From: Dictyostelium discoideum
Lineage: Eukaryota
Assembly (NCBI GenBank): GCA_000004695.1
Contig: CM000151.3
Location: 3,072,001-3,136,000, forward strand
Direction: 5' to 3'
Length of the DNA stretch: 64,000 nucleotides
In this document: piece after piece, positions 47,869 to 64,000 of the stretch
Position numbering within the stretch: position 1 is the stretch's first letter
Layout: every line of letters begins with the position of its first letter
Translations under genes and position numbers: made by a program
The notes under the pieces: model-generated
Told to the model about the DNA's origin: nothing
Databases searched by the model: none
Seen by the model: the letters and a program-made list of their open reading frames with translations, nothing else

Positions 47869-50800
47869 ATGGATAGCAATGAGAGTGATGTCTCTCAATT
47901 AAATAAATCAAAGAATGAAGCAAATAATAATAATAATGAAAAACAAAATGATAATAAAAATATAGAGCAAACTCAAAAAGAAGAAATTGCACCAAAAACA
48001 GAAACTAATAAACAAAATTTAAATAATAGCAATGAAAACAATAATTCAATTAGTCTCGAAGCTAAACACCTTGAGAGTGAAACAAAAAATAATAATGAAA
48101 AACAAAATGATAATAAAAATATAGAACAAACTCAAAAAGAAGAGGTTGTACCAAAAACAGAAACTAATAAACTAAATGTAAATAATAGCTATGAAAACAA
48201 TAATTCAATTAGTCCCGAAACCAAAAACCTTATTTCCACCATTGTAAATATATCTAGTAGTAATCCTGTAGTACATGCAGATCAAAATAGTAAACCCAAT
48301 ATTGAAAAAAATACTCATAATACAACTCAAGCTGTAGTAAACGCATCAAATAATACAACTCGTTTGATTGGGGAAGTATTAGATAAAAATAAAAATAATA
48401 ATAATAATAATAATAATAATAATAATAATAATAATAATAATAATAATAATAATAATAATAATAATAATAATAATAATAATAATAATAATAATAATAATAA
48501 TAATAATAATAATAATAATAATAATAATAATAATAATAATAATAATAATAATAATAATAGCAATAATAACAGCAATAATAATGATAATAAAACTAGTACA
48601 ACCACAACAACCAATAATAAAAAATATTTATTAGAGGATCCGAATAATTTTCGTGCCATAGTAAAAATTAGTTTGGGCTATTTACATAACAAAGAAAAAT
48701 CAGCTTGGGCGAACATAGAGCAAGAGAAACAAAAAGGTTTTTTTTCATCATTAATTAGTTTTTTTATTCCAGATCATTTCTTTGATCCTATAGACAAAGA
48801 TTGGATAAAAAATCAACAAAAGAAATCAAAAGTTCAATTCTTGGATAAACAATTACATAAGGAAAATCCGCATAGATCTATGTGGTATTACATTGTTCAC
48901 CATGGGTACAGTATAAAGAGTTTATTTTCACTTTAGTTATTAAAGAGTTTAATAAATATATATATATACTAATTTAACAAAAATATTTTTTAAAGAGAGT
49001 TTGAACAGGATACAGGCGATATTCTTTTGGAGTTATCAGAATCATTAAATTCATCGGGTATTCCATTGATGCCATATTCCATTATAGCAGTAAAAGAAAC
49101 TTATACCACATTCTTCAATACTCTCACTGGAAATGAAAGAACAAATATAGATTTAATTTTTTATTTCACTCTTAGTTATCCTTATGTTTTAACAAGTGCA
49201 TATATCAAAATATTGCTTTCTTATTACTTTATTTCCGATAAATATCAAAAAACAAAGTTTATGGATATGTTTTCTCATATTCCTGATAATCATCAAGCTC
49301 TTTTTGTTAAATACGTTACTAGATTTTTAAAAGATAACCCTGATATTACAATATTCCAATTTTTCTTTGAACTTTTATCAAGTTGTAGACCTGTAAATGG
49401 TAAAGGACCGGTTTTCAATGATTTAAAGAGTATAACCAATGATGAAGAAGGAACATATTCAGACCCTTTTAAGAGTTTGTTAGTTGCTTTCCAAACTCAA
49501 AAGTTAAAGCATTTATATGTAAACGAAAAGGCTAAAGCAATCGTTACTAAATTGTTTGCTACATACCCTACGCTATATCAAGTTTTAAGAGATTTTCAAG
49601 AGTATTCAAAAGTTGTTGAATCCTTAGATTTAAGTTATCTTTCTGATAGTGAATTTTTAAAGTAACAATATGATATATATATATAAATGTTTATATTTTT
49701 AGTAATATTACTAATTCTTTTTTTTTCTTCTTCTTCTTCTCCTTCTTCTTCTTCTCCTTCTTCTTATTAATTTATTTAGGTCATTAGAATTTTTAGGTGC
49801 TCAGCCAGAGGATTTTAACAATCAAATATACAAAAGAGGTAAAAAAGATTTTTTGATAAGTTTGTTTGAACTCAATGGTAAAAATGCAAATGTTTGTCAA
49901 AGATATGCAATGGAGAAGATAAATAGAGTTTTGGATTTGTTTGCTACATTTTCAATATTGCACCCAGACCATCAATACCTTGAATTTGCTCCAACCTCAT
50001 TGTCTTATTACTATGAACCATTAATTTCAGATTTGGCCAATATTGAGAGTTCTTTTGAATTCGAAAGAGAAAAGTTAAAAAAAAATTATTCACAATTCTA
50101 TAAATTATGCGAACATATCATTTTTGAAATTACAAAGAAAGCTTCACCACATCAAAACTTTTTCAACTTTTTCTCTTTAAGAGCCACAAGTCTACCTCTT
50201 TCCCTTTCTATTTTAGCAAATTATTGCCTAAAGAATGCATTGGATCAGGTATCTAAAAACAGTGATACTACTTACGCTCAAAATCTTATTTATCGTTTTA
50301 ATAATTTAAAAACTTTGGAATGGGACGAACAAATGGTTGAATTTATTCAAACTAAAGAGATTGTAAGTTTTTTTTTTTTTTTTTCAGAGTATATGTGCGA
50401 AATCCAATTAATTTTTTTTTTTTATTAAAATTTAACATAATAGATTAAAGAAAAATTTATAGAGATAGCTAATAAGTATTCTAAGGAAATTGTAAAGTAT
50501 AAAAAAGATTATGATACTTTAAAAGTAAATTTAGAGCTTTATTTCAACCACCAAGGTTTGATGGATTCAGATCAACTTATTAAAGAATTTAGAGAATATT
50601 CAAATGGAATTGAAAGATATAAAAAATTAGAGAATTACTTAAATCAAGAATTTGGTTTCAATAAATTAGTGAGTGAAGGTACTCATTGCTCACCAAAAGA
50701 TACTGTGAAAAGTTATCTTAAACATATTCGTCAAACAAAGATTGATAATTTCAAAACACCATTAAATGATGAATCCATTAAATTTATGTTATATTTCATT

Positions 50801-62800: not shown

Positions 62801-64000
62801 AATAATAATAATAATGATAATAATAATAATATTGAATTAATGAGTGATGATGTTTTTGAATCATTTAAATTAGATTTTGCTATTAAAGATTTATTACCAG
62901 TTATTAATGTAAATCAAGTATTATCACTATGTGATATATTTATAAATAGTTACCTTGGATTTAGATATTATTATAGTTCAATTATTCCTGACCCAGTTCA
63001 ACCAAACAATGACTATTTAATTCAATTTAAATCAATTTCAGAGAGTATCTTAAAGGATTGTGAATTTGATATTCGAGAACGTTCAATTCTTTGGAAAGAT
63101 TATTTAGGTAAAATCATTCAAAAAGCATCTTCTGAAGATTCAAAGAGAATTGCAATATCCATTCAACCAGATTTACCACTTTTACATTTAATTAATAAAT
63201 TCCAATTACGTGATATCAAAGAACCTTCAACCAATTTATCAATCTTTACTTTTGTTTTACCAAGTATGACTTCAAGTTATTATGCAACATTTATGGGTAC
63301 ACTTCAAGAAACTCTAACAGTTTTACACATTCAATTGGATGAAATTGGTGAAGTTACAAATGATAAAAATAGTAGATTTGGTAGTGGTGGTGGTGGTGGT
63401 TTAATCATTTTCAAAGAATTAACAATTGATGATTTAAATGGCACTACTAAAAAGAAATTTTTCAATCCAAGAGCTTCAACCCCTTCACAATCTCAAGATA
63501 ATAGATCCATTAATCCAATGTTTAAAAAAGCTGATCAAAATTTGAAACTTAAAGAATTAGTATCATACAATAATGAATATCTAACTAAAAATGTTAAAGT
63601 TATTAGTAATGATGGAAATGATAAAGAAGAGGATGAATCATTAATTAAAACTATGTTAATATTAAAGGATCATACTATCAAAACATCATCATCATCATCG
63701 TCAATACCAATCTTTGCTACGAGTTTATTAGAATGGATAAGATTCAATTTAATTGATTTATTAAATATTGAAGATGTTAAATTCTCTTTCTCTTTATATA
63801 CAGAGTTACAACATTTCAAATCGATTTCAAGTAAAAAATTAAAAGAACCATTCATAGTCGATACTTTATTTAAGGAATTCATTGAAGCAAATGATGAATT
63901 AATGGAATTATTAAATTCAACTCCATCTTCATCCTTCTTATCACCTTCAAAGATTTTAGCTTTACTTTTACAATCAATTAAAAAAATATCATCATCCATA
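47869..64000 (+). CDS. 5' part of a giant gene (more than 5,200 codons within the window, open at the 3' end) encoding a protein with two AAA+-like P-loop NTPase modules. Four exons: 47869..48910, 48998..49661, 49780..50362, 50444..>64000.
   Basis: The exon chain is phase-consistent (TAC A|GTATAA...AAAGAG|AG; AA|GTAACA...TTTAG|G; ATT|GTAAGT...AATAG|ATT). Exon 4 is a single open frame for more than 13.5 kb. No plus-strand ORF of this size appears in the supplied track, because no stop occurs before the window end. Walker A-1 is AIILKGDTGTGKSFSFFFYAAI (about 53990), with Walker B LIFVIFIDEFNTAP (about 54500). Walker A-2 is PLLVVGPPGCSKTISFTIV (about 55320), with Walker B KSVVFLDEAGLVDE (about 55545). 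Exon 1 has a 56-aa tandem duplication and an (AAT)n poly-Asn run. Confidence 0.7.

Follow-up and report, generated by a model that had tools for sequence, protein, structure and literature searches.

The window analysed here is a 64,000-nucleotide (nt) stretch of Dictyostelium discoideum DNA (GenBank assembly GCA_000004695.1, contig CM000151.3, positions 3,072,001 to 3,136,000 of the forward strand), and from position 47869 to its end it is occupied by a giant plus-strand gene, which is still open at the last base, so that 5,282 codons from its 5' end are covered. The predicted product carries a core of AAA domains that is clearly related by sequence to RNF213 (mysterin), and this part lacks both the RING and the RZ finger of that protein. 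All features of the gene described below lie on the plus strand, positions are those of the window, and amino-acid (aa) numbers follow the four-exon model.

One giant gene in four exons

The gene model joins four exons (47869..48910, 48998..49661, 49780..50362 and 50444..64000) into 15,846 nt, or 5,282 codons, free of stops. Exon 1 starts with an ATG at 47869 behind an A-rich leader and runs in an open frame to a GT donor at 48911; exon 2 continues in phase over an 87-nt intron of 14% G+C, exon 3 is preceded by an intron of 118 nt, and the frame of exon 4, after an intron of 81 nt, begins right behind a TAG (50441-50443) whose AG (50442-50443) is the acceptor. All three introns are of the GT..AG type with 14-19% G+C, in a window of 22% G+C that has poly-Asn tracts and short, AT-rich GT..AG introns, features that mark a dictyostelid genome. 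Exon 4 was re-translated and gave 4,519 codons with no stop, as the initial annotation had described for the frame from 50444 to the window end. Stops make up about 9.4% (0.094) of random codons at this base composition, giving an open run of that length a p near 1e-194, which rules out a chance origin. From about aa 800 to its end, exon 4 also aligns with 16 dictyostelid paralogs. The locus is therefore one real gene with a product of more than 5,282 aa.

The three phase-consistent 5' exons proposed earlier were likewise retained, with homology support confined to the exon 3/4 junction (aa 763/764), which is bridged by high-scoring segment pairs to a Heterostelium protein (P0105, aa 658-998) and to a Dictyostelium dimigraforme paralog (aa 593-1183). 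Exons 1 and 2, and the exact donor of intron 1, are placed by frame and GT..AG boundaries; exon 1 encodes a low-complexity N-terminus and has other in-phase donors within about 10 nt of 48911. We regard exons 1 and 2 as plausible.

The gene contains several repeats. A 159-nt unit is present 1.9 times in tandem in exon 1 (47929-48231, 92% match), doubling a 53-aa segment (NNNEKQNDNKNIEQTQKEE..PKTETNK..) close behind the start codon. In-frame AAT/TAA arrays at 48383-48590, 57233-57277, 57980-58031 and 62716-62831 encode poly-Asn runs of 55, 15, 17 and 32 residues (the first, in exon 1, at 48394-48558), three of which split otherwise conserved domains, namely an AAA6-like unit and the C-terminal module. 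In intron 2, some 14 copies of TTC/CTT form a pyrimidine microsatellite (49725-49765) just 5' of the acceptor.

An AAA core related to RNF213

Searching all Protein Data Bank (PDB) sequences with phmmer identified human and mouse RNF213 as the sole significant relatives of the product (E 3.6e-46 to 7e-38), the remaining matches being low-complexity artefacts. The match covers exon-4 residues 1322-2110, equivalent to aa 2085-2873 of the model, and a family profile built from ten members (A4) matched RNF213 at E 4e-30 (profile positions 3-451) and lengthened the significant match to about aa 2956. The RNF213-homologous stretch recovered by phmmer, profile and Foldseek is thus aa 2085-2956 (54407..57022), and comprises the C-terminal part of AAA3 from its Walker B onward, AAA4, AAA5 and the start of AAA6. 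Pfam found P-loop models (AAA_7, AAA, AAA_5 and AAA_22), weakly. An AlphaFold model of aa 2500-3695 (predicted local distance difference test, pLDDT, 62) contains two alpha/beta units, the domain of AAA5 and another at aa 2969-3151; RNF213 structures took ranks 1-8 in its Foldseek search (E 1.6e-17 to 4.9e-15), followed by dynein motor domains (4e-7 and weaker) and then NSF and Mdn1 (3e-3). The initial annotation had judged the architecture closer to RNF213/mysterin than to dynein or midasin, and these results agree with it, with RNF213 the only significant PDB sequence match and first in Foldseek for both of the models searched.

Motifs of the nucleotide sites could be followed across the core. 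The AAA2-type Walker A, GEFGTGKT (aa 1573-1580, 52871..52894), scored 31.4 bits against a cut-off of 25.8 with AAA_7, the Pfam model of the dynein P-loop region, and family alignment A3 shows no variation at its residues G1573, G1578 and K1579. The corresponding Walker B position reads GVLLHINLSP (53048-53077) without an acidic pair, so AAA2 should bind ATP without hydrolysing it. AAA3 has a Walker A, GDTGTGKS (aa 1948-1955, 53996..54019), that is invariant in the same alignment, a Walker B, VIFIDEF (aa 2119-2125, 54509..54529), that aligns residue by residue to RNF213 ILFFDEANT, a sensor-1, IIGAMNP (54623-54643), aligned to HIIAACNP, and a sensor-2, VSIRDIM (54911-54931), aligned to VSLRDV. 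For AAA4, the Walker A GPPGCSKT (aa 2391-2398, 55325..55348) pairs with RNF213 GKPGSSKS, the Walker B VVFLDEAG (aa 2465-2472, 55547..55570) with VVVLDEVGL, the sensor-1 region LSNKILDAAKTNR (55667-55711) with ISNWALDPAKMNR, and the sensor-2 FHQRDYC (55889-55909) with FGLRDY, while in AAA5 LPWLNRFEKY pairs with IPLINRLEKH. In RNF213, AAA2 binds ATP yet has no Walker B, and AAA3 and AAA4 have complete catalytic motifs (PMC7311170); by comparison of motifs, a Walker A alone in AAA2 with complete AAA3 and AAA4 is the same pattern.

Two complete P-loop modules had been noted at this locus before, and both were confirmed, with GDTGTGKS, FIDEF, GPPGCSKT and FLDEAG at aa 1948, 2121, 2391 and 2467; the third P-loop upstream, GEFGTGKT at aa 1573, had been overlooked. 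The spacing given as about 445 aa is 443 aa from Walker A to Walker A, and the more than 2,800 aa said to follow amount to 2,810 aa after the second Walker B.

The remaining AAA units were less evident. AAA2 to AAA5 are recognised by sequence. The unit at aa 2969-3151 (57059..57607) is moderately supported as AAA6 by the structure model, in which its strands KWVIFTRT, FIKIIHL, ILIVIADM and LITIYHYP (AlphaFold2 model residues 470-476, 585-589, 614-620 and 644-651) have moderate pLDDT; it is split by the 15-Asn tract, and an AAA signal was not found in it at the sequence level. No P-loop was present upstream of aa 1573 in the window protein, an internal profile-profile comparison of the putative AAA1 to AAA6 revealed P-loop likeness only among AAA2, AAA3 and AAA4, and the family profile of aa 1180-2130 (A3) matched neither RNF213 nor anything else meaningful among PDB sequences. 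A long stalk-type insert between AAA4 and AAA5, such as the microtubule-binding stalk of dynein, was not seen by eye in the aligned stretch, to which no dedicated coiled-coil test was applied, and Pfam matched no VWA/MIDAS domain in the window protein or its paralogs.

The C-terminal half and the missing zinc fingers

Beyond the ring, the predicted protein continues as an all-alpha part of about 2,000 aa, within which a module at aa 3690-4760 (59222..62434) is a candidate counterpart of the RNF213 E3-module scaffold, without its RING. When the AlphaFold model of this module was compared by Foldseek with 350,542 PDB chains, the top two matches were RNF213 (E 4.9e-4 and 1.8e-3), the only ones with a probability of 1.00, and no other fold matched. 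The family profile also contains a weak collinear motif in the RNF213 E3-module region (YKHDFVVRT against CYLKDFILLTMRV), and the profile of the whole module (A2) recovered neither RNF213 nor anything meaningful among PDB sequences. An RNF213-like C-terminal scaffold is moderately supported by the model. In one predicted protein of 5,119 aa, P0118, the module occurs twice (aa 2609-3413 and 3807-4807), either through internal duplication or because gene prediction has joined two tandem paralogs.

The module contains a conserved loop, KYFPGSRGGQLVDCNAKY (60992..61045), with an Asp-Cys pair at Asp4292-Cys4293 (61028-61033) that is near-universal in the family as part of the motif VNxLAxxLG ... 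PGS ... DCG[YFM] ... P.IMGN ... W. The pair does not vary in alignments A2 and A5, its conservation in the 40 sequences of A6 is 90% or more, and local iteration found the Asp-Cys module in 61 fetched homologs, from a set that spans a sponge (Oscarella), a choanoflagellate (Mylnosiga), a heterolobosean (Willaertia) and a malawimonad (Gefionella). Such near-invariance across distant eukaryotes argues for chemistry over mere scaffolding. Profiles of the module (A5, 19 sequences, and A6) found no RNF213 and nothing meaningful among PDB sequences.

No CxxC occurs anywhere in the 5,282 aa, in which Cys makes up 0.98% of residues, and so the window part of the protein has no RING and no RZ finger. 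The RZ finger is a C-x3-H-x6-C-x8-C-x2-C-x8-H pattern, formed in the human protein by C4505, H4509, C4516, C4525, C4528 and H4537 (PMC11549300). Both this pattern and that of the C3HC4 RING are absent from the window protein and from 17 close dictyostelid paralogs, and no RING-like CxxC cluster was present in 20 more distant giants that we checked. An earlier remark that no RING or other Cys cluster precedes 64000 is thereby upheld and widened to full-length paralogs. With these two defining features missing, the gene falls outside RNF213 proper, and the family is an RNF213-superfamily variant, not an RNF213 orthologue. Among the fetched homologs, a single distant one from a Logan assembly (P0226) has a canonical RZ finger (aa 3809-3846, GWYKCPNGHLYSVGECTMPMQLARCQECGVPIGGQNH) and no RING, indicating that RZ-only RNF213-like proteins exist beyond the characterised vertebrate ones.

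Collinear extrapolation from the aligned core places the human RZ finger (C4505-H4537) at about aa 4,280-4,430, at the Asp-Cys loop, so by sequence position the two would appear to coincide. An hhalign comparison of a 62-sequence module profile with P0226 was collinear but not significant (P 0.006, probability 6%), and in it the RZ finger falls into the same inter-helix gap as the Asp-Cys loop, which is suggestive. The larger module was not significant against P0226 either (P 0.073), and local iteration never took this protein in. Given the weak score and the negative larger-module and PDB tests, equivalence of loop and RZ finger is a hypothesis and not a finding.

At the very end of the window (63722..64000), alignment A1 and blastp to the paralogs revealed the start of a USP-like region (SLLEWIRFNL ... 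SPSKILALLLQSIKK), the last ~95 residues aligning with the start of the paralogs' C-terminal domain. Collinear matches extend to aa 4575 of P0104 and aa 4790 of P0110, 12-21 aa short of their first CxxC. Two paralog tails exceed the cut-off of Pfam UCH (PF00443; 44.3 and 40.1 bits against 23.9), and a tail profile weakly matched USP28, USP30 and the pseudo-USP USP39 (E ~1e-3). The paralog tails have a USP-like order of boxes with CxxC..CxxC fingers, and most run on, as read by eye, into one to three SAM-like repeats. We considered HCLFNWLRF as a USP Cys box and rejected it, as no alignment supports it and HMMER placed it on the USP28 helix EFTHKLLDWLE at a meaningless -0.9 bits. In P0111 (Synstelium polycarpum) a classical CDC48/NSF-type AAA domain (GVLLHGPPGTGKS ... 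ILFLDQVE, aa ~4,560-4,827) stands in place of the USP-like tail.

Family, function and comparison with known systems

To define the family, aa 1923-3013 (nt 53921-57193) were searched exhaustively against 1.84 billion representatives, which returned 1,767 relatives, 1,092 of them at E <=1e-10 and 411 at <=1e-30. Full-length relatives came solely from this search: queries that contained poly-Asn were swamped by low-complexity words (4 and 1 matches), and a clean query found only fragments of less than 830 aa. The 17 closest relatives are dictyostelid proteins of 4,189-5,794 aa that are 43-57% identical in the core, the closest match among the representatives being 57% identical. These include Polysphondylium violaceum KAF2070684, at least three proteins of Heterostelium album, at least five of Acytostelium subglobosum, two of them encoded just four locus tags apart, and members from Cavenderia, Tieghemostelium and Synstelium. 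Paralogs are collinear over ~4,500 aa, and relatives are annotated in databases as "hypothetical protein" or "AAA+ ATPase domain-containing protein". Farther relatives occur in Protostelium, Mastigella, Pelomyxa and other eukaryotic supergroups. None of the literature searched describes an RNF213 relative from Dictyostelium, other Amoebozoa or protists.

Dictyostelium dimigraforme carries a collinear copy of the giant gene, and its contig JBTAPM010000031.1 has two family members in tandem (3-7240 and 9745-12923), separated by 2.5 kb. In the annotation the first appears as two proteins (828 and 1,244 aa), and a frame change in an A-run near contig positions 6880-6900 is needed to reach its SAM-like C-terminus. 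P0114 of Acytostelium subglobosum has an N-terminal B-box-like Cys/His cluster (CNKHKKFFYLTCFQCRGIRLCRDCVPNHVNHP, aa ~25-65), which, USP-like tails apart, is the only zinc-finger-like element that we noticed among the dictyostelid proteins. In the distant P0002, an ENA metagenome protein of 1,481 aa, a von Willebrand A domain (PF00092) lies directly N-terminal to an RNF213-type AAA3/AAA4 pair. The neighbouring genes in the window are ordinary: an M1 aminopeptidase (1353-2957, minus strand), a pirin (18098-19501, minus), an Atg4-type C54 peptidase (21287-22309, plus), a DHHC palmitoyltransferase (24801-25787, plus), a hybrid histidine kinase in a 1,496-aa open frame with HisKA, HATPase_c and receiver domains (28719-33206, plus), and a methyltransferase.

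We suggest, with a probability of roughly 0.7, that this one real four-exon gene encodes a giant AAA+ protein of the RNF213/mysterin superfamily, from an amoebozoan branch without RING and RZ finger, whose likeliest function would lie in the ubiquitin system, as an ATP-switched machine. If RNF213 is a guide, ATP bound at AAA2 would hold the ring together, and ATP binding and hydrolysis at AAA3 and AAA4 would act as a conformational switch, not a motor, controlling the C-terminal module. That module may be a RING-independent transthiolating ubiquitin ligase working through Cys4293, or may instead be a ubiquitin-binding scaffold that acts through its USP-like pseudo-enzyme. That the family has expanded in bacterivorous dictyostelids, to multiple and partly tandem copies, would fit a role in cell-autonomous defence, though this is speculation.

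Several observations weigh against this interpretation. Sequence and profile searches link the protein to RNF213 at aa 2085-2956 only, and AAA1 was detected neither by the family profile (aa 1180-2130) nor by internal profile-profile comparison. RING and RZ, the two catalytic elements described for RNF213, are both missing, and ligase activity of the C-terminal module is purely inferred. The Foldseek match of that module is modest (E 4.9e-4, TMq 0.30) and comes from a model with a pLDDT of 65, in which the Asp-Cys loop is a low-confidence beta-hairpin with pLDDT <50. As for the USP-like tail, the paralogs have GSY, GLY or GIY in place of the GHY box with its catalytic His, and the Cys that most of them keep in a HCLFNW motif is Ser in the window protein, making protease activity unlikely. 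The USP-like part is absent from the D. dimigraforme copy, P0105 and P0119, so its presence past 64000, where the 3' end of our gene falls, is probable but not certain.

The best-surviving alternative, which we consider unlikely, is that only the AAA core is common with RNF213 and that an unrelated helical scaffold makes up the C-terminal 2,300 aa, making the protein an ATP-driven remodeller or adaptor without ligase chemistry, with any link to ubiquitin limited to binding by the degenerate USP-like domain. The lack of RNF213 similarity in sequence or profile past aa 2956 would be expected on this account, as would the non-significant comparison of the large module with the RZ-bearing P0226, the absence of RING and RZ, and the paralog tails without a catalytic His. 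It is countered by the C-terminal model, for which RNF213 alone reached a probability of 1.00 in Foldseek, by the near-invariant Asp-Cys in distant eukaryotes, and by the weak collinear motif in the E3-module region. A true RNF213 orthologue with a RING and/or RZ finger encoded past base 64000 is very improbable: the gene is indeed cut by the window end and paralogs have Cys pairs just past the equivalent point, but these pairs belong to the USP-type fingers region recognised by Pfam UCH, the full-length paralogs show neither pattern, and the RING and RZ positions extrapolate to about aa 3,800 and about aa 4,300, inside the window, where no CxxC exists. We reject a dynein- or midasin-type motor or remodeller and an artefactual frame (a pseudogene or several fused genes), since, although the Pfam matches are confined to P-loop models of generic and dynein type (AAA_7, AAA_5) and Foldseek also lists dynein and Mdn1 further down, RNF213 ranks first by both sequence and Foldseek, no dynein or midasin was matched in the PDB sequence search, no P-loop precedes AAA2, Pfam finds no MIDAS/VWA, and the frame is stop-free beyond chance and collinear with orthologues and paralogs over ~4,500 aa.

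RNF213, an immune and stroke-risk protein in humans, is studied as a susceptibility factor for Moyamoya disease and as a ligase that ubiquitylates bacterial lipopolysaccharide and coats pathogens. It is treated as a vertebrate protein in the literature searched, and has been described as "expressed in all vertebrates" (PMC7311170). With this locus, the AAA2/3/4 switch core of RNF213, and probably its C-terminal scaffold, are found in a professional phagocyte that is open to genetics, in multiple copies and with neither of the known catalytic zinc fingers. An active C-terminal module would help define which parts of RNF213 are needed for activity and would make the conserved Cys a candidate for the catalytic residue; an inactive one would reveal a role of the AAA scaffold apart from ligation. 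In either case, Dictyostelium makes the ancestral role of an RNF213-type machine testable, which is hard with the human protein of 5,207 aa. The core homology is within reach of a plain sequence search; the novelty lies in the absence of the catalytic fingers, in an Asp-Cys pair that hardly varies across eukaryotes and in a tractable phagocyte model. More tentatively, and on balance doubtfully, the Asp-Cys loop may represent an ancestral active site, free of zinc, in a transthiolating ligase of the RNF213 type. The vertebrate RZ finger would then have evolved from it as a more elaborate form inserted at the same point, and the dictyostelid paralogs would be ATP-gated ubiquitin ligases or sensors directed cell-autonomously against ingested bacteria. 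If so, RNF213-like immunity would already have been present in the unicellular ancestors of animals and amoebae.

Compared with known systems, the giant shares with the dynein heavy chain and midasin (Rea1/Mdn1) probable membership in the superfamily of six-AAA single-chain rings and matches to Pfam AAA_7 and AAA_5, and both are second- and third-tier matches of it in Foldseek; unlike them it has no active AAA1 P-loop and no MIDAS, it gave no match at the sequence level, and their Foldseek E-values are at least 10 orders of magnitude weaker than those of RNF213. The paralog tails resemble catalytically inactive USP-fold proteins such as USP39/Sad1 in their CxxC..CxxC fingers, USP box order and replaced GHY His, but here an RNF213-like giant carries the domain at its C-terminal end, and the window protein shows only ~95 residues of it with Ser for the paralog Cys. 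From RNF213/mysterin itself (PDB 6TAX, 7OIK, 8S24 and 9JW1) the amoebal protein differs in having no RING and no zinc-binding RZ finger, and in a 110-aa insert between Walker A and Walker B of AAA3. Its N-terminal arm, linker, AAA1/2 and C-terminal module show no detectable sequence similarity to RNF213, and no CBM20 or other Pfam domain was detected in the arm. The amoebal family also differs in being multi-copy per genome, in its Asp-Cys loop without zinc ligands, and in the degenerate USP-like domain and SAM-like repeats that end many paralogs. What it has in common with RNF213 is a single chain of more than 5,000 aa with a long N-terminal arm (~1,300 aa here, in part low-complexity), a dynein-like AAA core whose sequence is significantly homologous from AAA3 to AAA5/6, a Walker A alone in AAA2 beside complete AAA3 and AAA4 sites, and probably a large helical C-terminal module, whose predicted model is, among solved structures, closest to RNF213.

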